From positions 4,129 to 28,355 of the forward strand of contig CAYFLO010000001.1 in the NCBI GenBank assembly GCA_964343995.1: a stretch of 24,227 nucleotides of DNA, in the 5' to 3' direction. Positions 3,426 to 22,230 of this stretch are shown one piece after another; position 1 is the stretch's first letter, and every line of letters begins with the position of its first letter. Source of the DNA: an uncultured Bifidobacteriaceae bacterium (GTDB lineage: Bacteria; Actinomycetota; Actinomycetes; S36-B12). The notes under the pieces were generated by a model. The model made no database searches. It had not been told where the DNA came from and saw nothing but the letters and a program-made list of their open reading frames with translations. Position numbers and translations under genes: made by a program.

Positions 3426-3453
3426 GGTTATGTCCGGTTATGAGGTGAAATTA
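3426..3453 (-). promoter_or_regulatory. Candidate internal promoter for pbp2-rodA (TAATTT -10) with a CATAACC direct repeat
   Basis: Minus-strand TAATTT (3448-3453) fits TANNNT. GGTTATG occurs at 3426-3432 and 3436-3442 in the ~180 bp mreD-pbp2 gap. No clear -35. Confidence 0.35.
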
Positions 3454-3488
3454 CGACACCCGAACTCAGGTCCAGCCGCGGTCAGGGC

Positions 3489-3998: not shown

Positions 3999-4001
3999 GA
4001 C

Positions 4002-5021: not shown

Positions 5022-5110
5022 GGGCCTAGTCTCCCTGACCCCGATGGGACCTGTGCACAGGGCGCGTCCCGGAACTGTCCCGCATCCCCCTGATGCCTTA
5101 CGCTCACGAG

Positions 5111-5128
5111 GACGGTCACCTGACCGTC
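5111..5128. promoter_or_regulatory. Operator-like inverted repeat GACGGTCA-CC-TGACCGTC
   Basis: Perfect 8-bp arms in the 125-bp divergent mreC/HTH gap, just upstream of the HTH gene SD. Confidence 0.5.
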
Positions 5129-5146
5129 ATCGAGGAGGGAGGCGCG

Positions 5147-5725: not shown

Positions 5726-6103
5726 TCAGGCGCCGTCGAGAAACGCGATCTCGCGCAGCAGCCCCAGCTGAACGGACGTGCGCGGTGTGGTGTCGACCGC
5801 GGGGAGTACGACGATCTCATGCGGATCGGCCGTGCCGATGGAATCCAGAATGACCGCCGGCTGCTGCGAGAAGTGCTCGCGGAACTCCGGCGCGTAGATC
5901 TGCACCAGGTCGGCCTCGAGAGCCAGGTCCGGGCACTCCACGTCCTGGGCCAGGAGCTCGGGAGCCAGGGCGAGCACGTCGTCGGCCACCGAGGTGGCTG
6001 CGGCGGCGAACCACGTCGGGGTGCGTGCGGCCGGTGCCTGCGGGTCGACGACCACCCGCGGCTCGACCGTCGGAAGGGTGAAGGGCTCCTGCGTCATCGT
6101 CAC
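5726..6103 (-). CDS. Hypothetical acidic protein (~125 aa)
   Basis: GTG/ATG start (6103/6097) just after the ATPase stop with a purine-rich SD-like tract. Normal codon usage. This is the C-terminal part of track ORF 5726..7264. Confidence 0.65.
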   Translation of the reverse strand: MTMTQEPFTLPTVEPRVVVDPQAPAARTPTWFAAAATSVADDVLALAPELLAQDVECPDLALEADLVQIYAPEFREHFSQQPAVILDSIGTADPHEIVVLPAVDTTPRTSVQLGLLREIAFLDGA

Positions 6104-6107
6104 TCCC

Positions 6108-7670: not shown

Positions 7671-8116
7671 CGTGCACCCCGGCGGCCGGCCGGGCCGTAG
7701 AGGACGAATTCGCGCTGCACGGGCGTGAGCAGCGATGTCGTTACCGGCACCGGTGTCGACGACCACTCAGGCGACGCAGACGAGGCGGATCCGAAAGCGG
7801 CGGGAGCGGGCGTGGGATCCACCAGCATCGTCGCACTCGCGGTGATTGCGGCGCCGACGGGCGCCGCCGGAGCGACGACCGGGTCGGCCATCGCATGCAG
7901 GCTGTCGCGGAAGATCTCCCGGGCCTGCTCGTCGATGACGGCGGCATGGCCGGCGAAGAAGTCGCTGCCGAGGTCGTCCTGGCTCACCGTCGACATCCGG
8001 GCGAGCAGGGCATCGGGATCGGTCGCTCCGAAGACGCCGGTGACCGTGGGCGTCGGGGTCGAGGTGCCACCGAACAGCTCCAGGCCTTCGCGCAGGGCGC
8101 GATCCTGATCGCTCAT
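7667..8116 (-). CDS. Hypothetical Ala/Pro/Thr/Ser-rich protein (149 aa)
   Basis: SD GGAGGAG and ATGA overlaps at both ends. Confidence 0.7.
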   Translation of the reverse strand: MSDQDRALREGLELFGGTSTPTPTVTGVFGATDPDALLARMSTVSQDDLGSDFFAGHAAVIDEQAREIFRDSLHAMADPVVAPAAPVGAAITASATMLVDPTPAPAAFGSASSASPEWSSTPVPVTTSLLTPVQREFVLYGPAGRRGAR

Positions 8117-8550
8117 GACGACTCCTCCAGCCACTCGGCGGGGACGAAGTCCGGGATCGCGATGTCGATGAGCCCGTCCTCGGTGCGCACGGTGAGGGCC
8201 AGCAGGGTGCACGAGGCATCGGTGACCAGATTGAGCGCGCTCACCGGAAGGTCGGCCGCGATCCACGCGTGCCGCGACCAGCGCGCCTGCCACTCGACCG
8301 GAAGCCCGTCGTGGTGCGCGGCCAGGGCGACGTCCAGGAGCGGGCTTCCCGCGCCGACGATCGGGTAGGCGGCGAAGCGGATCGACCCGGCCCGTCCGGC
8401 GACGACTTCGCAGGTGATGGTGATCCGATGGGACGTGGCCAAGCCGGCCGGATCGATGATTCCAACGGGGGCGACAGACGTCACCAGACCCCACCCGCGT
8501 CGCACGAGACACTCTCGTCCGGCGTCGTCGACCTCGATCCGGGTGTCCAT
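8113..8550 (-). CDS. Hypothetical beta-rich protein (145 aa)
   Basis: Strong SD AAGGAGG before ATG 8550 and an ATGA overlap with the next gene. Confidence 0.75.
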   Translation of the reverse strand: MDTRIEVDDAGRECLVRRGWGLVTSVAPVGIIDPAGLATSHRITITCEVVAGRAGSIRFAAYPIVGAGSPLLDVALAAHHDGLPVEWQARWSRHAWIAADLPVSALNLVTDASCTLLALTVRTEDGLIDIAIPDFVPAEWLEESS

Positions 8551-8581
8551 CGTCCTCCTTCGCGGGTCCCCTGTGAGGGCG

Positions 8582-8589
8582 GTATCGGA
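8582..8589 (-). promoter_or_regulatory. Near-consensus pil-regulon -10 element TCCGATAC
   Basis: One mismatch to GCCGAWAC, intergenic, 31 nt upstream of ATG 8550, within ATCGG-T-CCGAT. Confidence 0.55.
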
Positions 8590-8626
8590 CCGATTCGGGC
8601 CTCCTCGCCCCGTGAGCCACGGCATG

Positions 8627-9445
8627 TCAGGCAACGATCGCCCCGGAGGCAGCGCCGAGATACCAGGCGGCCAGGGCCGGTCCCAGCACCAGGCCCACGG
8701 CGGCACCGGCGATGAGGAACGGGCCGAAGGCGATGGCCTGGCGTCGTCGCGCTCGTCCGGCGACGAGCAGCACAACGGCCACGGCACCGCCCAGGAGGAA
8801 GGACGCGAACAGGCCCGAGGCCGAGGCACCGATGCCGACCCAGCCGACGGTGGCCCCCAGGACCGGGGAGAGCTTGACGTCGCCGAGTCCCATGCCGCGC
8901 CCGCGCGTGAGGACGTGGAGCACCCCGGTGACCGTCGTCCAGAGCACAGCGCCGATGAGGGCCCCGGTGACGTTGGACTCCCCCGAGATCAGCCAGGCGA
9001 CCACGAGGCCGACAGCGGTGATCGGGTAGAGCGGGTAGACGATCGCGTTCGGAAGTCGATGGACGTCGAGGTCGATGAGTGCCAGCGCCAGGCACGCGGA
9101 GGTGAGGACGAGGAGGAGTGGCAGGAGACCCGCAGGTCCGGACCCCACGAGGCACCACCACGCCATGGCCCCCCACAGCACACCGTTGGCCAGTTCGACC
9201 AGGGGGTAGCGCGCACTGATACTTGCGCGGCAGGAACGGCAGCGACCGCGCAGGAGCAGCCAGGACAGAACCGGTACCTCATCGCGCGGCGTGATGCCCG
9301 CACCGCACGACGGGCACGCCGACCGCGGGCGTACCACTGAGCGGCCCTGCGGCACGCGATGGATGACGACGTTGAGGAAGGACCCCACGATCAGGCCGAG
9401 GAGGCCGGCGGCCACCACGGCGATGAGCGCCAGGTCGGTGGTCAC
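8627..9445 (-). CDS. pilD: Prepilin peptidase / N-methyltransferase (A24A)
   Basis: GSFLNVVIHR, PRSACPSC, RGRCRSC, ISARYPLVE, catalytic IDLDVHRLP and GMGLGDVKL, and FGPFL. Confidence 0.96.
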   Translation of the reverse strand: MTTDLALIAVVAAGLLGLIVGSFLNVVIHRVPQGRSVVRPRSACPSCGAGITPRDEVPVLSWLLLRGRCRSCRASISARYPLVELANGVLWGAMAWWCLVGSGPAGLLPLLLVLTSACLALALIDLDVHRLPNAIVYPLYPITAVGLVVAWLISGESNVTGALIGAVLWTTVTGVLHVLTRGRGMGLGDVKLSPVLGATVGWVGIGASASGLFASFLLGGAVAVVLLVAGRARRRQAIAFGPFLIAGAAVGLVLGPALAAWYLGAASGAIVA

Positions 9446-10347
9446 GAGGAGCCGCCCACGCCGGCCATGACAGCACGCGCGAGGTCGGCACGTGCCTGCT
9501 CCAGTCGCGATTCCAGGTCGGCGATGAGCCGGTGCAGCTCGGCCACATCGGTCGAGTCAGGCGCACCGGTGTCCGCGGTCGTCGTGGCGCGCGGGGAACC
9601 GAGGTCGACCGAGCCGAACTGCTCGGGGACGACGTAGTGGTCGGACTGTTCGACCGGCACCGACACCGCCTCCGCGCGTCGCTGCAGGACGACGAGCGCG
9701 GCCAGGTGCACCGCCTCGGCACGCGTGAGACCCAGGCGTCCGGCGACCGCATCGACACTTCCGCCACGACCGGCCTCGGTGAGGAACGCCGCGACCTCGG
9801 GGGCGTCGCCGGACACGTGGCGTCCGGAGACCACCAGCCCGGTGTCGACCGGGCTGCCCTGCAGCGTGACGGTGCGCCAGGTGGCCTCCGTGCGCTCGCG
9901 ACGCACCTGCACCAACGCGCGAAGTTCGTCGAGATCGACCGGAAGGGCGCACTGCTCGCCGGTCGTCACGCCCTCCTCGAACTCCACGCGCACCGAGCGC
10001 AGGGTCGAGAGGGCCCCGACACCGGCGACGAGAAGCTCTTGATGGATCGCAGCGAGGGCATCGATGGCGATGAGTCCCCGCTCGACCGCGACGCGACCGA
10101 TCGGACGACCACTGTCCGCGGTGGAGAGGGCCAGGGCTCGGATGTCGTCCTCGTTCACCTCGCCCTGCGCGACGATGCGGTCGGTGATGGACGGGGCATA
10201 GTGGTCGAGCTCGACCGCGTAGGCGCAGCCGTCGACGGTGAAGACGCGTGCCCGATGTCCGCTGCGCCGATCGGTGACGACGATCGCCCCGGTGCGTCCG
10301 CGTGCCACATCCCACAGGGCCTGCCCCGACGTGCGTCCGATCCTCAT
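9442..10347 (-). CDS. DUF4388-like protein with MshEN-like helical repeat and C-terminal coiled coil (301 aa)
   Basis: Pattern TGAIVVT...VFTVDGCAYAV...IGRVAVERGLI...VEFEEG recalls DUF4388. ELHRLIADLESRLEQARADL coiled coil. Overlapping start/stop codons at both ends. Confidence 0.6.
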   Translation of the reverse strand: MRIGRTSGQALWDVARGRTGAIVVTDRRSGHRARVFTVDGCAYAVELDHYAPSITDRIVAQGEVNEDDIRALALSTADSGRPIGRVAVERGLIAIDALAAIHQELLVAGVGALSTLRSVRVEFEEGVTTGEQCALPVDLDELRALVQVRRERTEATWRTVTLQGSPVDTGLVVSGRHVSGDAPEVAAFLTEAGRGGSVDAVAGRLGLTRAEAVHLAALVVLQRRAEAVSVPVEQSDHYVVPEQFGSVDLGSPRATTTADTGAPDSTDVAELHRLIADLESRLEQARADLARAVMAGVGGSS

Positions 10348-11051
10348 GAGGCGGGTATCGGCTGGCTGGTGACCCAGGGGGCCTGGCGCTCATGGATCGG
10401 GCAGGGGGCCGCTCCCCCGTGGTCGACGGTGCCCACGTCGAATCCGGGACGACCGGTGCAGCCCGGACTCCACTCCTGCCGCAGCAGTCGACCGCCGGAC
10501 TCCACGCTCGACAGTGACATGCCGCCACCGGGACCGCCAGGGCCGACATGGTCGATGTGGACAACATGCTCAGGGATGACGTCGCGGGCCACCGCGCCGT
10601 CACGCACGACAAGGGAGTAGTGACGTACCGAGAGGTCACCGACGACCATGACGGTGGCGGCGCCGGACTCGCGCACGGTGAGGCTGCAGCGCGAGCCGAG
10701 GTAGGACGCCAGGTCGCGACGCTCGCCGGTGCCGAGGGTGAACGTCGTCGCCTCGCCGCCCGCGTACGCCCGATAGCCCAGTCGCGGGTCATAGGCCTTG
10801 CCCACGTGCTCGCGCACGGCGCGTTCGGCCTCGTCGAAGGTCCCTGCCCGCCCTTCGATGAGCAGGCGTGGCAGTCCGTCGACCGCGGTCATGCGATCGC
10901 AGAGCTCCCACCCGTACGACGCCACATGGCGCTGTCCGTCGACCATGGCACTCGTTCCGCTGATCCGGGCCACGAGGTGGTCGGTCAGCCACGTCCACTG
11001 CAGGATCCCGGACTCGTCGGTGAAGACCCACGGGATGGGGGTCGCGGTCAT
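10344..11051 (-). CDS. Hypothetical multidomain protein (235 aa), possible Sm-like domain and C-terminal Cys/His motif
   Basis: ATGA overlaps at both ends and host-like codon usage. Product is unknown. Confidence 0.75.
   Translation of the reverse strand: MTATPIPWVFTDESGILQWTWLTDHLVARISGTSAMVDGQRHVASYGWELCDRMTAVDGLPRLLIEGRAGTFDEAERAVREHVGKAYDPRLGYRAYAGGEATTFTLGTGERRDLASYLGSRCSLTVRESGAATVMVVGDLSVRHYSLVVRDGAVARDVIPEHVVHIDHVGPGGPGGGMSLSSVESGGRLLRQEWSPGCTGRPGFDVGTVDHGGAAPCPIHERQAPWVTSQPIPAS
10355..10362 (-). promoter_or_regulatory. GCCGATAC -10 element, 7 nt before ATG 10347
   Basis: Plus-strand GTATCGGC with exact 7-nt spacing to a start that has no SD. Confidence 0.6.
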
Positions 11052-12208
11052 GCCGGCTGCAGGAGCGCGGTGAGTCCGTCGTCCGCGCCCAGGGCCCCGC
11101 CCAGGCTCTCGCCCATGGCCGATACCGATCGGGTGACGGCGGCGCCGACGGCCTTGGGCAGAACCCCCAGGGCCTGCGCCACGTCCTGGCGGGTGCGCTC
11201 GCCCCAGAAGGTGAGGTAGGTGCAGGCCAGCGCCATCGCATCGGCCCGCAGCGCGCCGCTGCGATCGCGACGCAGGCACGAGTCGAGTACGGCGCGGGTG
11301 AGCACCTGTGCGGTCGCCCGCGACAGGCACGCATCATCCGCTGTCTCCGCGGCGATCAGACCCACCTGGTCGCACGACACTGACTGCGCATCGTCGTCGT
11401 CGGCGCGGCTCACCAGGGACCTCGGCACGCGCAGGGCGTGGGTGGTGGCCACGGCCTGGCGGCGCTTACGGACGTCACCCACCGTGGTGCCCGTGAGCTC
11501 GGCGAGCTCGGCGTCGGTGGTGCGGCGATGCTGGGTCGCCAGCGACTCGTCCTCCAGCCGGCGGAAGCGCAGCTGGTCATCGATCGTGGTGCGACCGTAC
11601 GCGGCCCGCGCCGCATCCTGCGGCCACTTGCGCAGCTTGCCCAGCATGAACACCAGGAAGGTGAGAGTGCCGTTGCGACCGAGCCGGTCGGCGTCATAGC
11701 GGTCGGCGTGATCGCTGATGAACAGGTACATCATCGAGCGCACGTCGTCGTCATCGATGAGATCGAGGTCGGCCATGAGCTTGCGGCGAATCGCGAAGGT
11801 GCGCGGGTACAGCCAGTCGACCGCGGCCATCACCAGCTCACCGAAGAGTCCGTCCGGGATCGCGTCCACGTTGCGGAAGGGCACACCGGTCTCCACCCGC
11901 ATGTTGTGGGCGGCGACGTCGTTCTCCTGGCACCACTGGGCAATGTCGTCGCGCGCCTGCGCACCCATGCCCTGCGGCACCCAGATGCGGTGCTGGCCAT
12001 CGCTCCACCGCCGGGTCGCAGCCTCGTAGGGAAGCGCGGTGACGATGTCGTGCGTCGAGACGGCCGCGTCACCGTCCCAGTGCACGCGATCGCACACCAT
12101 CGCGGGAGCCAGCGCGAGGATCTCCCCCTCGTCCATGCCGCGGACGACCAGGCGCGGGATCCGGCGCCCCTGCCGGTTGCTCGCCGTGATGAGCAGGTCC
12201 TCGCTCAT
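11048..12208 (-). CDS. Divergent group-3 (WhiG/FliA/SigF-like) sigma-70 factor with extra N-terminal domain (386 aa)
   Basis: Region 2-like DVRSMMYLFISDHADRYD...TFLVFMLGKLRKWPQDAAR, region 3-like RRTTDAELAELTGTTVGDV, and region 4-like YLTFWGERTRQDVAQALGV. SD GGAGGAAG. Confidence 0.7.
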   Translation of the reverse strand: MSEDLLITASNRQGRRIPRLVVRGMDEGEILALAPAMVCDRVHWDGDAAVSTHDIVTALPYEAATRRWSDGQHRIWVPQGMGAQARDDIAQWCQENDVAAHNMRVETGVPFRNVDAIPDGLFGELVMAAVDWLYPRTFAIRRKLMADLDLIDDDDVRSMMYLFISDHADRYDADRLGRNGTLTFLVFMLGKLRKWPQDAARAAYGRTTIDDQLRFRRLEDESLATQHRRTTDAELAELTGTTVGDVRKRRQAVATTHALRVPRSLVSRADDDDAQSVSCDQVGLIAAETADDACLSRATAQVLTRAVLDSCLRRDRSGALRADAMALACTYLTFWGERTRQDVAQALGVLPKAVGAAVTRSVSAMGESLGGALGADDGLTALLQPA

Positions 12209-12528
12209 GCGGCTTCCTCCGACACCATCGGCGCCACGAACATCGGCTCCCACGGCTCGAGTTCGTCGAGAACGTCGACCAGACCGCCGACGGCCATCTG
12301 CGCCTCCGGCTCACCGGCGCGGATCGCCGCAGGGGCACCCAGGAGCGCGCCCAGACGAACGCTGCGCCCCTCCGGGCTCACTCGGTCGTCGATCACCCGT
12401 AGCCAGCCGAAGGTGGCCAGGAGCCGCTGGAGCCGCTCCTGCAGGAGAGCCGAGGACTGCTGGGTCGCCTGAACCGCCAGCACCACCTCGACGGGTGCCT
12501 CCACTGAATTCACCGCACTGCCGTTCAT
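12205..12528 (-). CDS. Hypothetical protein (~107 aa), first gene of the accessory operon
   Basis: High GC3 codons and an ATGA overlap with the sigma gene. Start codon uncertain (12528 or GTG 12513). Confidence 0.65.
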   Translation of the reverse strand: MNGSAVNSVEAPVEVVLAVQATQQSSALLQERLQRLLATFGWLRVIDDRVSPEGRSVRLGALLGAPAAIRAGEPEAQMAVGGLVDVLDELEPWEPMFVAPMVSEEAA

Positions 12529-12548
12529 GAAGAGCCCTATCTGTAGTC

Positions 12549-12603
12549 CCCTGTATGACAGGGAACACGAAGGATTCAACCCTGTCCAGTAGACCCCTAC
12601 TGG
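12549..12603. promoter_or_regulatory. Two inverted repeats upstream of the sigma operon
   Basis: CCCTGT-ATG-ACAGGG (12549-12563) and CCAGTAG-ACCC-CTACTGG (12586-12603) in a relatively AT-rich intergenic region. Confidence 0.45.
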
Positions 12604-12671
12604 CTTTACTCAGGCTTGGCCCACTTTTGTCGCGGCACTGGCTGCGGACGCCCCGGGTAAACCCGAGCGCG

Positions 12672-12721
12672 CAAAGAGCGACGGCGGCCGCTCCTCCCTC
12701 GCGGGGGGAACGACCGCCGTC
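12672..12721 (-). terminator. Intrinsic terminator-like hairpin after pilA
   Basis: Minus strand GACGGCGGTCGTTCC...GGAGCGGCCGCCGTC (15-bp stem with 2 GU pairs) followed by GCTCTTT, 16 nt after the pilA stop. Confidence 0.8.
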
Positions 12722-12737
12722 GGCGGTTCGCTGGGGA

Positions 12738-13199
12738 CTAGGCGATCGCGTACACGCCCGCCGCGCCGGCCGTGGCCGAGCAGGTGTTCGTGGTCGAGGT
12801 CGGATCCGGCTTCAGGCCGCCGTTCGCCGAGTCGTACGTGAACTGGTTCTTGGACTCCGCATTGCAGCCCACGATCGTGTAGGTGCCGGCGGAGGAGTTC
12901 ACCGTGATCGTGTAGGTGTTGCCCGTCGACAGCTTGGGCTGGTCGACCGAGGCGAGCGCCTTGGCCTGAGCGTCCGTGGGGTAGGCGCTCTTGGTCGTGT
13001 AGTAGGTCTCCATGAACTTGGCGATGCCGTTGATGTCGGACTTCACCGACGCGTCACGGGCGGCCGAGCGCTGGTTGAGGAACACCGGGATGGCGATGGC
13101 CGCCAGGATGCCGATGATGGCGACGACGACGAGGAGTTCGATGAGGGTGAAGCCCGACTCCCCGTCCTCCCGGCGCTGCTTGAGCGAACTGAGCATCAT
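12738..13199 (-). CDS. pilA: Major type IV pilin
   Basis: Class III signal peptide KQRREDGESG/FTLIELLVVVAIIGILAAIAIP, two C-terminal Cys, own promoter and terminator, and SD TGGAG. Confidence 0.93.
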   Translation of the reverse strand: MMLSSLKQRREDGESGFTLIELLVVVAIIGILAAIAIPVFLNQRSAARDASVKSDINGIAKFMETYYTTKSAYPTDAQAKALASVDQPKLSTGNTYTITVNSSAGTYTIVGCNAESKNQFTYDSANGGLKPDPTSTTNTCSATAGAAGVYAIA

Positions 13200-13260
13200 T
13201 GTGATCTCCACTGCGTCGAGCCCCTTGCGGGGGCGGCGGGCGCGACGCCCTCCGCGGTGG

Positions 13261-13268
13261 GTATCGGC
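13261..13268 (-). promoter_or_regulatory. GCCGATAC -10 element of pilA
   Basis: Plus-strand GTATCGGC in the pilC-pilA gap, 61 nt upstream of ATG 13199. Confidence 0.7.
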
Positions 13269-13284
13269 CCGAAATCCGCCCCGG

Positions 13285-14502
13285 TCACTTCACCAGGTCG
13301 AAGATCTTGAAGATCGGCAGGTACATCGCGATGATCATGCCGCCCACGATGGCGCCCAGGCCCAGGATCATGACCGGCTCAATGAGGGCCATGAGCTGCT
13401 CCGTGGTGGCCTCGACCTCCTGGTCGTAGAAGTCGGCCACCTTGCCCAGCATGGTGTCCAGGGCGCCGGCGTCCTCGCCCACGGCGATCATGTGGACGAC
13501 CATGTCCGGGAAGATCGGGTGCTTGGCCAGCGGCCGGGCCATGCCCGAACCCTGGCGCACGCTCTCCTTCACGGCCGCCACCGCATCGGCGATCACCACG
13601 TTGCCCGCCGTCTCGGCCACGACGTCGAGAGCCGACAGGATCGGTACTCCCGCCCCCAGCAGCGATGACAGATTGCGCGTGAACCGGGCCAGCGCCACCT
13701 TGGCGAACAGCGGCCCGAACACCGGGAGCCGGAATCGCAGCGGCTCCACGATGCGCCGGATGCGCTCACTGCGCCGGTTGCGCCGGTAGAGCACCGTTCC
13801 GACCACGATCGCGGTGATGAGGGGCAGCAGCACGAACGGGTTGCGCAGGGTGTCCGAGACCCCCACGAGGATCCGGGTCGGCAGGGGCAGCTCGCCGCCG
13901 AAGGACGCGAAGAGGCCGGCGAACACCGGCACGACGAACAGCAGCATGCCGGTGGTGATGATCACGGCGATCACCGCGACCGCCACCGGGTAGGTGAGGG
14001 CCGACTTGATGCGCGAGCGCAGTTTGACGTCGGCCTCGAGGGACTCGGCGACCTGCACGAGGGTGGCGTCCAGGAAGCCACCGACCTCGCCGGCCCGGAC
14101 CATCGAGACCATGACGAGCGGGATCTCGCGATGCTCACCGAGGGCATCGGACAGGGGCGAGCCCTCCTCGACCGCGCGTCGCACCTGACCCAGGATCTCC
14201 CCCAGCCGTCGACTGGTGACCTGCTCCTCCAGGATCGCCAGGCATCTCAGGATGGGCAGGCCTGCGGCGAGCATGGTCGCGAACTGACGGCTCACAACCG
14301 CGAGGTCCTTCGTCGTCACCCGGCCACGCCCGAAGCGGATCTCGCGCTTGAGGCCAACGTTCGCACGGTCGACGGCGATGGGCGTCAGCCCCAGGCCCTT
14401 GACGCGTGCGATCGCGTCGGACTCGCTCTGCGCCGCCATCCGGCTCTCGACGAGTCGACCGTTGCGCGCCCGCGCCTTGACGAGGTACTCAGCCTGTGGC
14501 AT
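13285..14502 (-). CDS. pilC: Type IV pilus platform protein PilC (T2SS F family)
   Basis: RQFATMLAAGLPIL, GEVGGFLD, SALTYP, GEDAGALD, EPVMI and YLPIF motifs. Confidence 0.96.
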   Translation of the reverse strand: MPQAEYLVKARARNGRLVESRMAAQSESDAIARVKGLGLTPIAVDRANVGLKREIRFGRGRVTTKDLAVVSRQFATMLAAGLPILRCLAILEEQVTSRRLGEILGQVRRAVEEGSPLSDALGEHREIPLVMVSMVRAGEVGGFLDATLVQVAESLEADVKLRSRIKSALTYPVAVAVIAVIITTGMLLFVVPVFAGLFASFGGELPLPTRILVGVSDTLRNPFVLLPLITAIVVGTVLYRRNRRSERIRRIVEPLRFRLPVFGPLFAKVALARFTRNLSSLLGAGVPILSALDVVAETAGNVVIADAVAAVKESVRQGSGMARPLAKHPIFPDMVVHMIAVGEDAGALDTMLGKVADFYDQEVEATTEQLMALIEPVMILGLGAIVGGMIIAMYLPIFKIFDLVK

Positions 14503-15751
14503 CGGGTGCCATCCCCAGCAGTTGATGGAGTTCGGCCGCATCCGAGCAGTGCTCGCGCGCGGTCTCGTAGGTGATGCGCCCCTCCGACACCAGCCCCGCG
14601 AGGCTCTGGTTGAGCGTGTGCATGCCGAACCGGGAGCCCGTCTGCAGCGCCGACGGCAGCGACGGAAGCTTGCCCTCGCGGATGAGGTTGCGCACGGCCG
14701 GCGTGGCGACGAGCACCTCGGTGGCTGCCACCCGCCCCTGGCCGTCGGCGGTGCGGCACAGTGCCTGACAGACGATGCCAGCGAGGGATCCGGCAAGTTG
14801 GGCCCGGATCTGCGCCTGCTGCCCGGCCGGGAACACGTCGATCACCCGGTCGATGGTCGACGGCGCCGACGACGTGTGCAGCGTGGCGAGCACCAGGTGG
14901 CCGGTCTCGGCCGCGGTGAGGGCGATGGCGATGGTCTCCAGATCGCGCAGCTCGCCCACGAGGATGATGTCGGGGTCCTGGCGCAGCGCATGCTTCAGCG
15001 CGTCCTGGAACGACAGGGTGTCCAGGCCGACCTCACGCTGGTTGACCACACACGAGCGGTGCCGGTGCACGAACTCGATGGGGTCCTCGATCGTGACGAT
15101 GTGACCCTCGCGGTTGCCGTTGGCGCGGTCGATGATCGAGGCAAGTGTCGTGGACTTGCCCGATCCCGTGGGCCCGGTCACCAGCACTAGGCCACGCGGC
15201 AGGTCGGCGAAGGTGCCCACGACCTCCGGCATGCCGAGGGACTCCAGCGGGGTGATCTCCCACGGGATCGCACGGAACACCGCACCGACGGCGCCCTGCT
15301 GCCACATGAGGTTGACGCGGAACCGTGCTGCGCCGCGCAGGGCGTAGGCGAAGTCAAGTTCGCGAGCCTCCTCGAAGCGCTGCTTCTGGCGCTCGGTGAT
15401 GATCGCGTAGACGCACGCCTGGATCTCGGTGGCGGTGAGGGCGGACATGCCCGGCAGCGCCAGCATGCGTCCGTGCACGCGCATCATCGGCGGGGCACCC
15501 GCCGACAGGTGCAGGTCTGAGCCCCCGCGGGCGACCAGCACGCGCAGGGCCTCGTCGAGGTCGAGGTCGTGGGCCGCGGCCTCGGCGACGCCGACACGAC
15601 TGGCGGCCGGCGGAGCCACCGGCGGCGGGACGGCAGCCGACACGGGCGCCGCCGGATGCATGACCGGGGGCTGCATGACGGGTGCCGGCACGACCGGGGG
15701 CTGCATGACCGGTGGGGTGACGGCGAGCGGATCGCTCAACGGGAGCGTCAT
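14489..15751 (-). CDS. pilT: Retraction ATPase PilT
   Basis: GPTGSGKSTT, TIEDPIE, LRQDPD, AAETGHLVLATLHT and an AIRNLIRE-type motif (AVRNLIRE). Pro-rich N-terminal extension. Confidence 0.95.
   Translation of the reverse strand: MTLPLSDPLAVTPPVMQPPVVPAPVMQPPVMHPAAPVSAAVPPPVAPPAASRVGVAEAAAHDLDLDEALRVLVARGGSDLHLSAGAPPMMRVHGRMLALPGMSALTATEIQACVYAIITERQKQRFEEARELDFAYALRGAARFRVNLMWQQGAVGAVFRAIPWEITPLESLGMPEVVGTFADLPRGLVLVTGPTGSGKSTTLASIIDRANGNREGHIVTIEDPIEFVHRHRSCVVNQREVGLDTLSFQDALKHALRQDPDIILVGELRDLETIAIALTAAETGHLVLATLHTSSAPSTIDRVIDVFPAGQQAQIRAQLAGSLAGIVCQALCRTADGQGRVAATEVLVATPAVRNLIREGKLPSLPSALQTGSRFGMHTLNQSLAGLVSEGRITYETAREHCSDAAELHQLLGMAPDATG
15662..15709. repeat. 18-bp direct repeat (GACCGGGGGCTGCATGAC x2) encoding VMQPPV twice in the PilT N-terminus
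   Basis: Copies at 15662-15679 and 15692-15709, 30-bp period. Confidence 0.85.
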
Positions 15752-17427
15752 GCGACCACCCGCAGCACCTCGGCCACGGTGGTGACGCCCTGCGCCACCC
15801 GAAGCCAGCCGTTGTCGCGAAGCGATCGCATGCCCTGATCGAGGGCGACGCGACGCAGCTCGTCGGATGTGGCCCGACGGGCGGTGAGATCAGCGAGCTC
15901 CGGTGACATCGGCATGACCTCGTGGAGGGCGAGGCGCCCGCGATACCCGGTGCCGGCACAGCTCACGCACCCGACCGGCTCGAAGATCGTCGGCGTGACG
16001 TCGGCGGGCACGACGAATCCGACCGCGGCGAGATCCGCAGGAGTCACCTGCGACGGGCGCTTGCACGTGGGGCACAGGCGGCGCGCAAGGCGCTGCCCGG
16101 TGGCGCACTGCAGCGCCGAGCCGACGAGGAACGGCTCGATCCCCATCTCGGTGAGGCGGGTGACCACACTCGGAGCGTCGTTGGTGTGCAGCGTGGTGAG
16201 GACGAGGTGGCCGGTGAGGGCGGCCTCGATGGCGATCTGTGCGGTCTCGTGGTCGCGGATCTCGCCGATGAGGATGACGTCGGGATCGGCCCGCAGGATC
16301 GCACGCAGCGACGACGCGAAGGTGAGACCGGCCTTGCCGTTGACCTGCACCTGATTGATGCCCGGGATGCGGTACTCCACCGGGTCCTCGACCGTGACGA
16401 CGTTGATCTGCGGCCGCGCCACCGCGTTGAGCGTTGCGTAGAGCGACGTGGACTTGCCCGACCCCGTCGGTCCGCTCACGATGAGCATGCCGTAGGGGCG
16501 CTGGTAGGCCGAGCGCCAGCGATCGAGGTCCGACGGAGTGAAGCCCAGGTCGGGCAGCCCCAGCTGTGCCGAGGAGTTGTCCAGGATGCGCATGACGATC
16601 TTCTCGCCCCACACGGTGGGCAGGCAGTTCACGCGCAGGTCGACCTTGCGGCCCTGCGACGACACCGACAGGCGACCGTCCTGCGGACGCCGCTTCTCCG
16701 CGATGTCCATGTCGCACATGATCTTCAGCCGGGAGATGATCGCGGTCTGGATCTCCTTGGGAGCCGGGGTCATCTCGGTGAGCACGCCGTCGATCCGGAA
16801 GCGGATGCGGATGCTGCTCTCGGTGGGCTCGACGTGGATGTCGGAGGCCTGGTCGGAGATCGCCTGGTTGAGCAGCAGGTTCACGTAGCGCACCAGCGGC
16901 GCGTCGGTCGTCGAGGCAACCGGTGCGGCCAGGTCGATCGTCGGCTCGTCGTCGAGCATGTCGCGCACGAGTTCGCCCAGCTCGGCCTCGGCCCGGTACA
17001 CCTGGTTGAGGCGGGTCACGAGGTCCTGCTTGAGCGCGCAGGCGAACCGCACCGACCGGCGCGTCACGGCCTGCAGGTCGTCGCGCACCTGCCAGTCCAT
17101 GGCCGTCGTGGTGTCGGAGGCGACGATGAGCACCGAACCCTCCGAGCGGACCGGAACGACGCCGTAGCGACGGGCCTGCTCCGGCGACAGCAGCGCCAGG
17201 CAGGCCGGATCCAGCGAGGCGTTGAGGATGTCGACGTACTCCATGCCCGCCGCGGTGACCGTCGACCGCAGGACGTCATGCGACGAGACCAGGCCGGCAT
17301 CGACGAGCGCCTTCACCGCACCCTGGGCACCACCGGTGGCGTGCGCGGCCTGCACCTGTTCGGGCGTCACGAGCCCGTCGCGCAGGAGCACGTCCAGTGC
17401 GCTGGCGGGTTGGTCCTGAATGGTCAT
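15748..17427 (-). CDS. pilB: Extension ATPase PilB (GspE/PulE family)
   Basis: ASDIHVEP, RRPQDGR, GPTGSGKST, EDPVEY, ALTGHLVLTTLHTN, and Zn tetracysteine CPTC...CVSCAGTGYRGR. ATGA overlaps at both ends. Confidence 0.96.
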   Translation of the reverse strand: MTIQDQPASALDVLLRDGLVTPEQVQAAHATGGAQGAVKALVDAGLVSSHDVLRSTVTAAGMEYVDILNASLDPACLALLSPEQARRYGVVPVRSEGSVLIVASDTTTAMDWQVRDDLQAVTRRSVRFACALKQDLVTRLNQVYRAEAELGELVRDMLDDEPTIDLAAPVASTTDAPLVRYVNLLLNQAISDQASDIHVEPTESSIRIRFRIDGVLTEMTPAPKEIQTAIISRLKIMCDMDIAEKRRPQDGRLSVSSQGRKVDLRVNCLPTVWGEKIVMRILDNSSAQLGLPDLGFTPSDLDRWRSAYQRPYGMLIVSGPTGSGKSTSLYATLNAVARPQINVVTVEDPVEYRIPGINQVQVNGKAGLTFASSLRAILRADPDVILIGEIRDHETAQIAIEAALTGHLVLTTLHTNDAPSVVTRLTEMGIEPFLVGSALQCATGQRLARRLCPTCKRPSQVTPADLAAVGFVVPADVTPTIFEPVGCVSCAGTGYRGRLALHEVMPMSPELADLTARRATSDELRRVALDQGMRSLRDNGWLRVAQGVTTVAEVLRVVA

Positions 17428-18554
17428 GCGACCTCCTTCGATCCGGCGCGCCGCAGCGCGACCCGCAGGTCCGTCGGCCTCGTCGCGACCTTCTCCGCCT
17501 CCGCCAGGGTCACGCGACCGGACATCACCAGGTCGACGAGGTCCTGCTGGAAGGTGCGCATGCCGTAGAAGCCGCTCTCGCTGAGGATCTCCTCCAGGTC
17601 GGCCGTCCGCTCGGCATCGGCGATCGCGTCCTGCACGCGGGTCGTGCCCACGCACAGCTCCAGTGCCAGGGCGCGACGACCACCCGTGGGCAGCAGGCGC
17701 TGGCAGACCAGGGCCCGCAGGGTCTCGGCCATCGACCGGCGCATCTGCTGCTGCTCGTCACGGGGGAAGAGGTCGACCACGCGGTTGACCGCGTCGACGA
17801 CAGTCTTGGCATGCAGGCTGGTGAGCACCAGGTGGCCGGTCTCGGCGGCCTGCAGGGCGGTGCGCATCGTCTCGGCGTCACGGATCTCACCGACGAGGAT
17901 GACGTCGGGGTCCTGGCGCATGCCGGCACGCAGGGCGCTGGCGAAGTCGACGGTGTCGGTGAGCACCTCGCGCTGGCTCACCGAGGCCTGGTCGTCATGA
18001 TGGACGAACTCGATTGGGTCCTCGATCGTGAGGATGTGGCAGCGGCGGGACCGGTTGATGCAGTCGACCATCGACGCCAGCGTCGTGGACTTGCCGGACC
18101 CCGTCGGTCCGCTCACGATGATGAGGCCGCTCTCCAGGAGCGCCAGGCTGCTCATGACCGGCGGGAACCCCAGGTCGCCGAGGGCGGGCACATGGGCGCG
18201 CACGTGACGCAGCACCATCGCGGTCGCCCCTCGCGTGCGGTACGCATTGCCGCGGAACCGCTCCCCGGTGTCGTCGACGTACGCGAAGTCGACCTGCCCG
18301 TCGCGCAGGAGGGTCTCGCGGTCCGCGGCCGCCACGAGCGCCTGCTCGACGAGGAAGGCGGCCTGCCGCTCGGTGAGGACGGGGAATCCGGTGGGACGGA
18401 GGTCGCCGTCCACCCGCACGGCCGGCACCGCCGACGCCTTGATGTGCACGTCCGAGGCACCCATCGCCACGGCCTGGGCCAGCAGGTCGGCCAGCCGCAC
18501 CGGGGCATGGGGCGCCGCGGCGAGGACGAGGTCGGGACCGGTGGGCAGCACCAT
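17424..18554 (-). CDS. Second PilT/PilU-family ATPase
   Basis: ASDVHI, GPTGSGKSTT, TIEDPIE, MRQDPD and AAETGHLVLTSLH. The AIRNLIRE position reads RVQDAIAD. Confidence 0.92.
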   Translation of the reverse strand: MVLPTGPDLVLAAAPHAPVRLADLLAQAVAMGASDVHIKASAVPAVRVDGDLRPTGFPVLTERQAAFLVEQALVAAADRETLLRDGQVDFAYVDDTGERFRGNAYRTRGATAMVLRHVRAHVPALGDLGFPPVMSSLALLESGLIIVSGPTGSGKSTTLASMVDCINRSRRCHILTIEDPIEFVHHDDQASVSQREVLTDTVDFASALRAGMRQDPDVILVGEIRDAETMRTALQAAETGHLVLTSLHAKTVVDAVNRVVDLFPRDEQQQMRRSMAETLRALVCQRLLPTGGRRALALELCVGTTRVQDAIADAERTADLEEILSESGFYGMRTFQQDLVDLVMSGRVTLAEAEKVATRPTDLRVALRRAGSKEVA

Positions 18555-18561
18555 GGATGGT

Positions 18562-18585
18562 GTTTCGGCTCGACCGCGCCGATAC
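18562..18585. promoter_or_regulatory. Back-to-back -10 elements GCCGAAAC (minus, 18562-18569) and GCCGATAC (plus, 18578-18585)
   Basis: Each lies exactly 7 nt before its ATG (18554 for pilT2, 18593 for pilM), and neither start has an SD. Confidence 0.75.
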
Positions 18586-18592
18586 GGACACC

Positions 18593-19780
18593 ATGAAGCT
18601 GCGCAAGCGCTCGACCCAGGCCTGGGAGCCCAGCCGTCGACGCCGGGCCGCCCGACCCGATCACGGGGCGGTCGTGGGTCTGGACATCGGTGCCACCCAG
18701 GTGAGCGCGGTGCGCCTGCGCAAGAAGGGCTCCGGTTACACGATCGCCCACGCAGCGCAGGTGCCGCTGGAGCCCGGTGTCGTGGTCAACGGCCAGGTCA
18801 CCGATCCCCGCGCCCTCGCCCGCGCCCTGCGCACCCTGTGGCGCAAGGGCCGCTTCGGCACCCGTCGGGTGTGCTTCTCCCTGGCCGCCCCCAGCGTCAT
18901 CACCCGTCAGGTCGACCTGCCGTGGATGCCCGAACCGGACTTCAGCCTGGCGCTGCGCTACCAGGTGACCGACGCCCTCCCCGTCGACCTGGCCACTGTC
19001 GAACTCGGTCACCACACCCTGGGTGACTACGTGCGCACCGAAGGGTCCGGCCAGTCGATGGAGATGAGCCGAACCCTCCTGGTGGCCTCCCCCACCGACG
19101 CGATCGTCGACACCGCCGAGTGCCTGCGCCGGGCCAACCTCGTGCCGATCGCCGCCGACTCCCCCGCCTTCGCGCTCATCCGTGCGGCCTGCGGAGGGAC
19201 GGTGTCCCAGACGGGCGCCCTCGCCGCGATCGTCGATGTCGGTCACGACACCGTGACCGTCGTTCTCCATGTCGACGGGCAGCCGCGGTTCCTGCGCAGT
19301 GTGGCGAGCACCGGAGCCGGATCGGCCACCGCGACCATCGCTGAGCGGTTCGGCCTGTCGGCTGCTGACGCCGATGAGCTCAAGGTCCGTATCGGTCTGC
19401 GAGGTCCGGTGCCGGTCATCACTCCGCTGCGAGAGTCGGGCATCTTCGGCGGTCTGCCGCTGGCGCCCGAGGCCGACGCCGATCCGCGCACGCAGGCCGT
19501 CATGACCCTGGCGTCGACGTGGGCCGGGCGCGTCATCGGCGAGGTCCGCAACTCGCTGGACTACTACCTGGCCGGCCACCCCGAGGAGTCCCTCTCCGAG
19601 ATCGTCCTCACCGGGCGCGGTGCCCTCATCGACGGCTTCGACAGCCGTCTGCAGACCGAGCTGCGCACCCCCGTCCGGGTGATCAGCCTGGACGACGTTG
19701 CCCGCGGCCCGCGTCGCGGCGTGCGCGTGGAGCATCCGCACTCGCTGGCGATCGCCGCCGGCCTGGCGATGGCCTCCTGA
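18593..19780 (+). CDS. pilM: Type IV pilus assembly protein PilM (actin/FtsA-like)
   Basis: VGLDIGAT, AAIVDVGH, EVRNSLDYY, IVLTGRGA and AIAAGLA. ATG 18593 is preferred over the track start at 18557. Confidence 0.93.
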   Translation: MKLRKRSTQAWEPSRRRRAARPDHGAVVGLDIGATQVSAVRLRKKGSGYTIAHAAQVPLEPGVVVNGQVTDPRALARALRTLWRKGRFGTRRVCFSLAAPSVITRQVDLPWMPEPDFSLALRYQVTDALPVDLATVELGHHTLGDYVRTEGSGQSMEMSRTLLVASPTDAIVDTAECLRRANLVPIAADSPAFALIRAACGGTVSQTGALAAIVDVGHDTVTVVLHVDGQPRFLRSVASTGAGSATATIAERFGLSAADADELKVRIGLRGPVPVITPLRESGIFGGLPLAPEADADPRTQAVMTLASTWAGRVIGEVRNSLDYYLAGHPEESLSEIVLTGRGALIDGFDSRLQTELRTPVRVISLDDVARGPRRGVRVEHPHSLAIAAGLAMAS

Positions 19781-19781
19781 C

Positions 19782-20672
19782 ATGGCCCTGTCCCTCACCC
19801 TGCGTCGCGGCAGCGCCGAATCCGACACTTCCCAGAGCGACGGCACCGCCCGCACTTCCGGCATGGGGCCGGCCACGGCTCGCGCGCAGCTGCCCGCGGT
19901 CAACCTGCTTCCCGCCAGCGTGAGCGCCGCGGTGCGCGTGCACCGCATCCGCCGATCGCTTGTGGCCGTGGCGATCGGCCTGGTGGTCGTCAGCGGCGTG
20001 GCGTGGTACCTGCAGGGATCGTCCATCGACCAGGCTCAGACCCTCGTCACGTCGGCGGAGGAGCAGAACGCCTCGCTGCGCGCCCAGGTCGACTCCTATG
20101 CGGCCGTGAGCCACCTGCAGGAGGCGATCGTGGCGCAGGAGAAGCTCGTGAGCACCGCGCTCGCCTCCGATCCCGATGCCGCCGGCATCGTCGACCGCGT
20201 GCGCACGGCTGCGGGCCCGGACATCACCCTCACCCAGGTGGCGGCCACGTACTCCGGACTTCCCGACCCCGCAGCCGTCCTCCAGGGCCAGGCCCACCTG
20301 TTCTCCTGCCCGGACCCGTCGCCGTTCACCACCAAGATCTCGGTGGGCTGTGTGAGTCTGTCGGGCAGCGCCACGACACGCGCCGCCATCTCGGAGTTCC
20401 TCGCTCGGGTCGACGCCGATCCGGTGCTGGACGGCCCGTTCCTGGAGTCGTCCGTCTTCGTCGCCGCCTCCACCGAGGCTCCCGCGCACGTGGACTTCAC
20501 CGCATCGTTCGGCATCTCCCCGGCCGGGCTGCGCACTCCGCTGGATCAGAAGGCCATCGACGACCTCATCGAGCGCGCCACGCCGCGCCCCGCCGCCACT
20601 GATCCAGCAGCCACTGCATCGCCCGGTGCACCCGCAGGCCAGGGCACCGTCACCCAGGGAGCCACGCCGTGA
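19782..20672 (+). CDS. pilN: PilN-like alignment-complex protein
   Basis: Conserved VNLLP motif, TM helix, coiled coil, ferredoxin-like C-domain (LSGSATT...FLARV), directly after pilM. Confidence 0.85.
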   Translation: MALSLTLRRGSAESDTSQSDGTARTSGMGPATARAQLPAVNLLPASVSAAVRVHRIRRSLVAVAIGLVVVSGVAWYLQGSSIDQAQTLVTSAEEQNASLRAQVDSYAAVSHLQEAIVAQEKLVSTALASDPDAAGIVDRVRTAAGPDITLTQVAATYSGLPDPAAVLQGQAHLFSCPDPSPFTTKISVGCVSLSGSATTRAAISEFLARVDADPVLDGPFLESSVFVAASTEAPAHVDFTASFGISPAGLRTPLDQKAIDDLIERATPRPAATDPAATASPGAPAGQGTVTQGATP

Positions 20673-21379
20673 GCACCATGACCGCCGCAAGTCCCGCCGG
20701 CCGCCGGCATCGGGCACCGATGTCGCCGCGCACCCAGGGCATCATCGGCGTCGTCCTCGTGCTCATCATGGGCGCGATCCTGTGGTTCGGAATTCTCGGC
20801 CCACGCTTCTCGCAGGCCGCGGACCTGCAGGAGCGTGCCGCGTCGGTCGACGCCAGCAACACCGCTCTGACGGCGCGGGTGGGGCGCCTGCGCACGCTGG
20901 CCGACCAGGCTCCCGCCGTCGCGGCGCGCGCCGAGGCGCTGTTTCGCACGATGCCGCAGCAGGCGGACCTGCCCGTCGTTCTCAATGACATCACCGCGGC
21001 GGCGCGTGACAGCGGCATCTCCCCCGACGGAATCCTGGCGATCAGCCCGGCCGCGCCGGTTCCCTTGACCGCTGCAACACCTGCGGGCGCTAACTCGGTG
21101 ACCGCCACGGCGGCGGAGTCGATCGGAGTGAAGATTGCCACGCTGCCGATGACGATCACCGTCGAAGGCGATCCCGCCGTGCTGGATGCCTTCGTCGGCC
21201 GCCTGCAGAACCTGCAGCGCGCCTTCGTCATCACCGGTACGCAGTACGCCACCGGTCCCACCGTGCCGGGCAAGCCCGCGACCACGTCGCTGACGGTCAC
21301 CGGAACGATGTTCGTTCTCGCCTCGCAGCTTCCCGACCTGGTCGCAGAGGTCACCCGGTCACTGCCCGCCGGACGCTAG
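20669..21379 (+). CDS. pilO: PilO-like alignment-complex protein
   Basis: TM helix, coiled coil, MPQQADLP...AA..SGI and ITVEG...FVGRLQNLQRAFVI patterns. GTGA overlap with pilN. Confidence 0.85.
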   Translation: MSTMTAASPAGRRHRAPMSPRTQGIIGVVLVLIMGAILWFGILGPRFSQAADLQERAASVDASNTALTARVGRLRTLADQAPAVAARAEALFRTMPQQADLPVVLNDITAAARDSGISPDGILAISPAAPVPLTAATPAGANSVTATAAESIGVKIATLPMTITVEGDPAVLDAFVGRLQNLQRAFVITGTQYATGPTVPGKPATTSLTVTGTMFVLASQLPDLVAEVTRSLPAGR

Positions 21380-21400
21380 CCGCGTCATTGCTCCCGAGGG

Positions 21401-21616
21401 TCAGGCGCCCTGGAGGAACGCGACGATGTCGGTGAGACCGTCGCCCTCCAGGAAGGTGCGGGCCCGCTCCACCGTCCACGCCATCGCGATGACGAGCGAC
21501 TGCACGCGTCGGTCGAGCATGGCGGCCAGGGAGTCCATGCTCGCCTCGATGCCCACCTCGCGCAGCCGCTGTGCGAGTGTGCGAGCGGTCACCGTCGACC
21601 AGTCGTCGCGGTCCAT
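21401..21616 (-). CDS. Small hypothetical helical protein (71 aa, MDRDDWSTV...)
   Basis: 3' part of track ORF 21401..22111 with strongly GC3-biased codons. Fills the gap between pilO and the DUF3846-like gene. Confidence 0.55.
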   Translation of the reverse strand: MDRDDWSTVTARTLAQRLREVGIEASMDSLAAMLDRRVQSLVIAMAWTVERARTFLEGDGLTDIVAFLQGA

Positions 21617-21634
21617 GCCGACGGCACCGAACGC

Positions 21635-21642
21635 GCCGATAC
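21635..21642 (+). promoter_or_regulatory. GCCGATAC -10 element, 7 nt before ATG 21650
   Basis: Shares CGCGCCGATACG (12 nt) with the pilM promoter. No SD. Confidence 0.7.
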
Positions 21643-21649
21643 GTCGATC

Positions 21650-22012
21650 ATGGCCGGCCTCCTCATCCCTGCGGACGTCCACGAGGACAGTTCCCTGGTC
21701 ACGCTGAGGGGTGCGTACCTGGATGCGGTCGGGGCCTTCGTCATGGCACCCGTGGACGTCATCGACGTGCTCGATGCCAACGGACATCCCAGCGGCATGT
21801 CGGTCTGGTTCACCGAGGACGGCGAGAGCCGTGCCCTGCCCCTCAATGTCGAGGTCTCGCGCCTCGTGGCGCCGTGGCGTGTTCATGGAGTGGCCCTCAT
21901 CACCCGTGGGGACGTCAATGACCCTGATGCCCTGGACCTGCCGGCATCCGATGTGGAGGTGCTGCGGGAGCTGCTCGCGCTCACCGAGCCATTGACTGCG
22001 CCGGAGGTCTGA
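21650..22012 (+). CDS. DUF3846-like protein (120 aa)
   Basis: Pattern ...MSVWFTEDGESRALPLN...SRL...VHGVALIT recalls the DUF3846 EEG..LP.N...I.G..L signature (recognised from memory). Confidence 0.6.
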   Translation: MAGLLIPADVHEDSSLVTLRGAYLDAVGAFVMAPVDVIDVLDANGHPSGMSVWFTEDGESRALPLNVEVSRLVAPWRVHGVALITRGDVNDPDALDLPASDVEVLRELLALTEPLTAPEV

Positions 22013-22154
22013 CGCCTCATGCCACTCCCTGTCCGCGCGCAAGGTCCCTGCGCACTCGCATTGCGTTGTCCTCGACGGTAGGCGGGGGACGGACAGGCCG
22101 AGCACTGGCACAGGTAAGGCCCGGGTAAGGAGCCGCCCATCCGGGCCCTGTCGA

Positions 22155-22162
22155 GCCGAAAC
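22155..22162 (+). promoter_or_regulatory. GCCGAAAC -10 element of the minor pilin operon
   Basis: 16-nt exact identity GTCGAGCCGAAACACC (22150-22165) with the pilT2 promoter (reverse complement of 18559-18574). Confidence 0.75.
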
Positions 22163-22230
22163 ACCCCGGGGAACCGCAATTCGACCCGGGTCCCCTGACG
22201 GTGTCGGACACGCGAGCGCAGGAGGCCCGG

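Follow-up and report, generated by a model that had tools for sequence, protein, structure and literature searches.

A sigma-28-type promoter box proposed for the type IV pilus cluster of an uncultured Bifidobacteriaceae bacterium, with a divergent sigma factor encoded in the cluster

The pilus cluster and its octamers

The DNA described here, in the following called the window, is a stretch of 24,227 nucleotides (contig CAYFLO010000001.1, positions 4,129 to 28,355) from the metagenome-assembled genome (MAG) GCA_964343995.1 of an uncultured Bifidobacteriaceae bacterium. It has a G+C content of 70% and is found in freshwater metagenomes. Pfam matches and gene models identify it as a type IV pilus cluster, and the element under study is the octamer GCCGAWAC, which recurs in front of the transcription units of this cluster. 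The MAG comprises 2.05 Mb in 405 contigs and is 78% complete; a home-made gene call yielded 2274 genes and a coding fraction of 93%.

The minus strand carries, in this order, pilT, pilB, a second pilT-like ATPase gene, pilC, pilA, three unknown genes, a DUF4388 gene, pilD, two small genes and the gene of a ParA/MinD-like ATPase. The first four of these occupy 13285..18554 (-) and were assigned by Pfam (T2SSE, MshEN, T2SSF) and the gene model. The region 5726..10347 (-) holds the DUF4388 gene, pilD (prepilin peptidase), the genes for proteins of 145 and 155 amino acids (aa), the ParA/MinD-like ATPase gene and a 125-aa gene, an order that is kept in relatives. Divergently from pilT, the plus strand encodes pilM, pilN and pilO (18593..21379 (+); Pfam PilM_2, PilN, PilO/T2SSM), followed by a 120-aa gene and the minor pilins.

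A pattern search returned exactly seven copies of GCCGAWAC, the number counted in a preliminary description of this DNA, at 10355-10362 (-), 11118-11125 (+), 13261-13268 (-), 18562-18569 (-), 18578-18585 (+), 21635-21642 (+) and 22155-22162 (+). The near-match given there for 8582-8589 (-) is present, too, and reads TCCGATAC. As had been claimed, six of the seven exact copies, together with the near-match, precede transcription units of the pilus cluster. The sole copy that is not placed like a promoter, 11118-11125 (+), lies antisense within a gene and scores below 10 with a matrix of 15 columns that was built from the sites of the family. Direct reading of the sequence also bore out the geometry described earlier: at four starts (10347, 18554, 18593 and 21650) the octamer is separated by exactly seven nucleotides from an ATG that lacks a Shine-Dalgarno sequence (SD), and the three remaining boxes are located 24-61 nt upstream of starts that possess one (GAAGGAGG before ATG 8550, AAGGGG before GTG 13211 and AGGAGG before ATG 22231). 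The number of copies expected by chance had been set too high, at about two. Dinucleotide shuffles of the window contained 0.96 copies on average and four at most, with none of 100 shuffles reaching seven, and the rate in the whole MAG (99 copies in 2.05 Mb) corresponds to approximately 1.2 copies per window, from which a Poisson probability of about 2e-4 follows for seven or more.

The unit of pilT, pilB, the second pilT-like gene and pilC is headed by GCCGAAAC at 18562..18569 (-), seven nucleotides from ATG 18554 (matrix score 19.8), and the pilM-pilN-pilO unit by GCCGATAC at 18578..18585 (+), seven nucleotides from ATG 18593; both are predicted to be leaderless. The start of pilM is ambiguous, as an in-frame ATG exists also at 18557. 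Within 18552-18595 the two boxes lie on opposite strands, only 8 bp apart, and the two start codons are separated by 38 bp, so that each polymerase would cover the opposite promoter; in most relatives the boxes of pilT and pilM are 30-100 bp apart. In front of pilA (GTG 13211), GCCGATAC at 13261..13268 (-) predicts a transcription start at 13253 and a leader of about 42 nt with SD. The same word at 10355..10362 (-), which falls within the final codons of a 235-aa gene, is situated seven nucleotides before ATG 10347 of the DUF4388 gene-pilD unit, again leaderless by prediction. The box TCCGATAC at 8582..8589 (-) belongs to the unit of the 145-aa, 155-aa, ParA/MinD-like and 125-aa genes, which starts with ATG 8550, and has the top matrix score of the whole genome (23.4). 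On the plus strand, GCCGATAC at 21635..21642 (+) precedes ATG 21650 of the 120-aa gene (weak DUF3846 likeness; predicted leaderless; score 12.9), and GCCGAAAC at 22155..22162 (+) precedes the minor-pilin unit with ATG 22231.

Retention of the box in related genomes

The relatives considered here are sampled genomes of the same family, and the box was compared in 15-21 of them. PilM is present in 22 of 80 sampled family genomes with 39-48% identity, the divergent arrangement of pilT and pilM is retained in the relatives, and gene order is the same in stretches of at most 20 kb from 15 relatives. The box is retained there before six genes, namely pilT, pilM, pilA, the DUF4388 gene, the 145-aa gene and the minor-pilin gene. 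On the pilT side, [GT]CCGA[ACT]AC-N7-ATG/GTG occurs in 14 of 16 sites (the window and 15 relatives). On the pilM side the relatives have [GT]CCGATA[CTA], mostly with leader and SD, the genomes G070, G080 and G090 being leaderless (N7-GTG). The promoters of pilA contain KCCGAWAC at a constant distance in 16 of 16 cases, all with a pyrimidine-purine step at +14/+15. The box of the DUF4388 gene is leaderless in G070 and G080 and has leader and SD in others, that of the 145-aa gene is retained in nine relatives, and equivalents of the minor-pilin box were found before the orthologous gene in two. No counterpart of the 120-aa gene (ATG 21650) was found in the relatives, and the box at 21635..21642 is therefore without comparative support.

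An alignment of 69 sites resulted in the pattern ATYGR-KCCGAWAC. Since CCGA and the A at octamer position 7 were demanded by the search pattern, their invariance in the 69 sites is given by construction. The real evidence for the octamer is its presence at the same promoter positions in the relatives. A pyrimidine-purine step at +14/+15 is found in 57 of the 69 sites, compared with 2-29 sites at other offsets, and it is present in the classes with leader as well; this would be the signature expected of a transcription start seven nucleotides past the box. The strand of the motif always agrees with that of the downstream gene, and the box is found at the same positions in a cluster from a lineage with 60% GC whose sigma factor is 39% identical.

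The strict 12-mer TYGRKCCGAWAC shows no genome-wide enrichment in five relatives when compared with a reversed control. It is concentrated at the pilus locus, for instance in G005 with four of eight matches within 10.5 kb. In three Nocardioides-like clusters, neither a homologue (within 10 kb) of the sigma factor discussed below nor a clear box was found; a scan of genome contigs with PilT led mostly to distant phyla. Two Nocardioides-like pilM/pilT intergenic regions (L054 and L057) contain GCCGAGAC near pilT, possibly a related box for another sigma factor.

Class of the box and candidate sigma factors

The -10 consensus of the sigma-28/FliA/WhiG class is GCCGATAA (PMC8325347, PMC12871210), and KCCGAWAC agrees with it at seven of eight positions. 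In the sigma-28 open complex of Pseudomonas aeruginosa, the octamer spans -15 to -8, its GC constitutes the extended -10, A-11 is flipped out and position -7 is not conserved (PMC12784957). Taking the A of the ATG as +1, the octamers of the window are located at exactly -15 to -8, too, without a T at -7. That the box is a -10 element of the sigma-28 (FliA/WhiG) type appears very probable to us. The TCGR which the preliminary description had noticed before the box is real and is kept in the relatives as ATYGR. However, its designation as an extended -10 does not hold, since the extended -10 of this class is the GC inside the octamer, and ATYGR is thus an additional element.

Boxes of this class are already known and have been tied to actinobacterial pili. 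In the WhiG pilus regulon of Rubrobacter radiotolerans and R. xylanophilus, several pilus units are likewise headed by a -10 of the GCCGATAA type, and in R. radiotolerans the transcription starts were mapped just past the box (PMC8325347). However, the Rubrobacter promoters possess a TAAA -35 and depend on a canonical WhiG restrained by RsiG and c-di-GMP (PMC8325347), whereas in the window TAAA was not seen, the final base of the octamer is C, ATYGR precedes the box, a canonical WhiG was not found and a divergent sigma factor is encoded in the cluster. The promoters CTCA-N16-17-GCCGAACT of the FliA family (WhiG1) in Actinoplanes missouriensis, which serve flagellar and zoospore pilus genes, share the GCCGA core and the pilus genes with the window; they differ from it in their conserved CTCA -35, another 3' half of the -10 and canonical, flagella-linked sigma factors (PMC12871210, PMC8325347). 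A survey from 2026 gives the two patterns T(A/C)AA-N16-GCCGATAA and CTCA-N16-17-GCCGAACT (PMC12871210). The octamer in the P. aeruginosa fliC complex (PMC12784957) matches the 7-nt gap of the window, but this promoter and the Escherichia coli consensus TAAA-N15-GCCGATAA are proteobacterial and flagellar, with a strong -35 at -36 to -30 and leaders with SD instead of leaderless starts. Actinobacterial leaderless mRNAs, finally, have in common with the present case that the start codon is the transcription start; there, the box is the TANNNT of sigma-A, whereas here it would be the -10 of an alternative sigma class. The system is best filed as a variation of the known pilus-associated box class, the variation being the failure to find the -35 and the canonical sigma factor and the presence of a dedicated divergent one.

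A weak match of the FliA model 7 kb from pilM in G070 led to the window open reading frame (ORF) 11048-12253 (-), which has sub-threshold matches to Sigma70_r3 and r4. The gene at 11051..12208 (-) encodes P0002, a protein of 386 aa that was classified as a divergent group-3 sigma factor by profile searches, hhalign and AlphaFold/Foldseek, and that we propose as the reader of the box. Its residues 1-115 form an extra alpha/beta domain, foreign to the FliA/WhiG family, which is followed by sigma regions 2, 3 and 4, the architecture of group 3. There are 223 homologues (E ≤ 0.001) from freshwater metagenomes and MAGs, most of them without a name and some labelled hypothetical in their source, but among 1.8 billion representatives no more than 69 clusters were found. 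A profile of 40 diverse members has WhiG (E 6e-16; WhiG residues 41-276), FliA (E 2e-12) and SigF (E 4e-12) as best matches in the Protein Data Bank (PDB), and hhalign returned 99.0% for an alignment of WhiG and 98.5% for one of SigF. The FliA_WhiG model TIGR02479 matches 36 of the 40 members, all below its curated cut-off of 189.6 bits; the G070 orthologue scores 23.9 bits. All top Foldseek matches of the AlphaFold model (pLDDT 79) are sigma factors. All 21 PilM-positive relatives encode the protein, in most cases approximately 7-8 kb from pilM on the same contig, and so do three further genomes. Within the order, 10 of 20 genomes of this family possess it versus none of 80 in nine other families. 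The ORF is thus a sigma-family protein that travels with the pilus cluster. Of the seven residues by which sigma-28 of P. aeruginosa contacts the -10, five are kept or conservatively replaced in the hhalign register, at about 19% identity (Y76 to F187, R80 to K191, R82 to R193, D87 to D198 and R97 to R206).

A sigma factor of the FliA/WhiG class (TIGR02479) was not found in the MAG with its 78% completeness, where the best match (101 bits) is a SigB/F/G protein; the inventory includes SigH_actino, SigM and an actinobacterial principal sigma factor and, together with the names that homologues of the cluster sigma factor bear in their sources, assigns the organism to Actinomycetota, and the gene for the beta-prime subunit of RNA polymerase is interrupted by a contig end. 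In the family, TIGR02479-type sigma factors occur in 9 of 81 genomes and in 4 of 21 that bear the pilus cluster. The closed genome G078 yielded none, and neither did G005, G012 and G038, which are 98-99% complete. Of the genomes sampled from other families of the order, 10 of 12 possess a canonical WhiG. SigB/F/G was rejected as reader of the box: the FliA-model matches of about 119 bits are SigB/F/G proteins and occur in genomes with and without pili alike.

Next to the sigma gene, and translationally coupled to it, lies the 235-aa gene (10347-11051 (-)), which is conserved in all relatives and whose product ends with an invariant Cys/His cluster (GCTG...VDH...CP.HE). This protein is a candidate for a partner of the sigma factor or an anti-sigma factor. 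A complex prediction for the two proteins returned a score of 0.00, which is no answer and counts neither for nor against binding. An unusual richness in A+T marks the spacer at 12529-12737, which separates pilA from a 107-aa gene located before the sigma gene. It contains no pilus box, and a consensus scan detected neither a sigma-70-type promoter nor an intrinsic terminator in it. G070 has TCCGATAC in this spacer, the other relatives do not.

Cousins of the sigma factor of about 500 aa and 26-30% identity are encoded in a second conserved neighborhood (L162, a metagenome contig of 20.9 kb, L165 and L168), together with an SbcCD-like pair, a weak prepilin-peptidase-like gene, many unknown small genes and a KTSC/amidoligase protein. 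L162 also holds an FtsK/SpoIIIE gene with intein-like matches. This kind of neighborhood possibly represents a mobile element, or else a second system resembling a pilus. In L162, whose cousin has 502 aa and is 30% identical, 10 of 13 copies of KCCGAWAY are intergenic, although intergenic DNA makes up 8%, and several are placed 7-10 nt before starts.

According to the mechanism that we propose, KCCGAWAC would be the -10 element heading seven transcription units of the pilus cluster. RNA polymerase with an alternative group-3 sigma factor would bind the octamer at -15 to -8, open the DNA at A-11 and initiate at the purine seven nucleotides past the octamer. For pilT, pilM, the DUF4388 gene and the 120-aa gene, this purine would be the A of the ATG, so that the mRNAs would have neither leader nor SD; for pilA, the 145-aa gene and the minor-pilin gene a leader of 24-61 nt with SD would result. 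The reader would be the divergent WhiG/FliA-related protein of the cluster, and the locus thereby a self-contained regulon. Both the transcription starts and the identity of the reading sigma factor are inferred. Leaderless mRNAs appear to be common in this genome, as TANNNT lies at -12 or -13 of many starts: about 340 candidate starts have a TANNNT that begins 12-14 nt upstream (221 of them at -12 and 94 at -13), hence approximately 15% of the genes look leaderless with a box of the sigma-A type. The earlier suggestion of a promoter -10 with leaderless geometry is supported by these widespread leaderless starts, by conservation, the fixed distance, the pyrimidine-purine step and the genome scan described below.

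Several observations weigh against this interpretation. Orthologous promoters are non-independent observations. A -35 of the form TAAA, T(A/C)AA or CTCA is absent from the 69 aligned sites, in agreement with the earlier impression that no -35 is shared, with no more than a weak bias towards GGKCC at -36 to -32. Four metatranscriptome runs compared with pilA, uninformative in this respect, match only the conserved N-terminal helix of pilins from other organisms (13064-13155), with none near the predicted start at 13253, and the public runs that contain this DNA are all DNA libraries, none being recorded as RNA. The sigma protein of the window gives no match above threshold to a curated sigma model and none at all to TIGR02479, the contact residues D93 and R104 of sigma-28 are not kept, and two further loci with homologues of about 500 aa (L165 and L168) are without clear enrichment of the motif. 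Moreover, the sister genome G001 of the same genus holds a FliA/WhiG gene truncated by a contig end (134 bits over 133 positions). Since the MAG is only 78% complete, a canonical WhiG could be absent merely from the assembly.

The last point leads to the explanation that the boxes are ordinary WhiG/FliA promoters, the canonical sigma-28 protein of which was not assembled, while the sigma-like protein of the cluster acts elsewhere or shares the promoters. The octamer fits the WhiG consensus as stated above, and four pilus-bearing relatives have both sigma factors, with WhiG located 14 kb from pilM in G068. However, the motif is retained, although no TIGR02479-type sigma factor was found, in 17 of 21 pilus-bearing relatives, the closed and the nearly complete genomes included; in G001, which does have WhiG, neither PilM nor the cluster sigma factor was found; and the -35 typical of WhiG is missing. 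We regard this explanation as unlikely, though it deserves some weight.

It is considerably less likely that the motif is an operator, bound by a regulator such as a 201-aa protein with two helix-turn-helix (HTH) domains (5093-5698) or a partner of the DUF4388 protein, with transcription starting from nearby sigma-A promoters. The short palindrome TCGG-N-CCGA is found in about half of the sites, and the conserved block of 13 nt is longer than a usual -10. This palindrome is not retained, however, as TTGA-G-CCGA and ATGA-G-CCGA are equally common. The fixed distance of seven nucleotides to the start codon and the pyrimidine-purine step suit a -10 and not an operator, the leaderless starts are not accompanied by a TANNNT box, and the motif always has the orientation of its downstream gene. 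A random or codon-driven GC-rich word is practically negligible as an explanation. Most of the 99 genomic copies do lie inside genes, for example in Ala-Asp-Thr or Gly-Ile-Gly codons, and the copy at 11118 is of the same kind. However, a chance or codon-driven origin is refuted by the shuffles, by the conservation of the copies at orthologous positions in diverged genomes, and by the intergenic placement of the top matches in the orientation of the downstream gene.

Taken as a whole, the explanation that sigma-28-type boxes head the pilus units and are read by the sigma factor of the cluster is in our view likely. For its most specific part, that the protein encoded at 11051-12208 and not a canonical WhiG reads the box, co-occurrence, homology and the failure to find WhiG tip the balance in favor, if not by much. 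About an even chance is given to the wider proposal that in this freshwater actinobacterial family a highly diverged offshoot of WhiG/FliA has replaced the canonical WhiG as pilus sigma factor. This offshoot would be characterized by a new domain of about 115 aa at the N terminus, a degenerate region 4, the -35-independent promoter ATYGR-KCCGAWAC and a cousin of about 500 aa that uses the same box in a locus resembling a mobile element, and it would constitute a new self-contained subgroup of the sigma-70 family.

Candidate regulon members and implications

In a genome-wide scan for further regulon members, as proposed in the preliminary description, 9 of the 13 top matrix matches fell between genes and had a gene within fewer than 100 nt downstream; coding sequence makes up 93% of this genome. 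The matches outside the window precede the genes of a secreted 271-aa protein, a GH18/CBM2 chitinase, an extracytoplasmic function (ECF) sigma factor on contig C240, a 2Fe-2S protein and rbpA. The second-best match of the genome (C276:1348-1355 (-); score 21.7) is situated before the gene of the secreted 271-aa protein (484-1296 (-)), which is not assigned to a family. Its sole orthologue is found in the pilus-bearing G080 and has GCCGATAC upstream as well. This protein is likely an additional member of the regulon.

On contig C86, GCCGATAC at 5298-5305 (-) follows CTCGG and lies 49 nt upstream of the gene of the GH18 chitinase with its CBM2 domain (3451-5241 (-)); the position of this box suggests that pili and chitin may be connected. 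The gene rbpA is preceded by GCCGAAAC-N7-GTG, with an SD and an ATG 6 nt further on. However, a CCGATA word upstream of rbpA was found in no more than 1 of 29 relatives, and the copy in the MAG is probably due to chance, so that rbpA was rejected as a regulon member. Two copies of GCCGATAC on contig C26, at 5697 (+) and 7387 (-), have identical flanks of at least 70 nt in inverted orientation and may represent a repeat element or an assembly duplicate.

The flank of the pilus cluster (window 1-5021) contains genes for RodA, PBP2, a protein of the size of MreD, and MreC; mreB was not seen in the window. The gene of the 201-aa protein mentioned above (5093-5698 (+)) is located between the RodA/PBP2/MreC genes and the pilus cluster, and both of its HTH matches are weak.

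That WhiG-type sigma factors control type IV pili has only recently become a theme in Actinomycetota, and the surveys published on it look for a TAAA or CTCA -35 plus GCCGA. The present lineage would escape such surveys, because its promoters do not have that -35 and its sigma factor is annotated as hypothetical. For organisms that have so far resisted cultivation, the motif offers a simple rule by which transcription units, leaderless starts and members of the regulon can be annotated, and the two divergent, putatively leaderless promoters of pilT and pilM, with boxes 8 bp apart, provide a compact model of promoter interference. With its extra domain at the N terminus, the sigma factor offers a testable example of how one gene cluster can capture a sigma factor, and it may show how a promoter is recognized without a -35 element.

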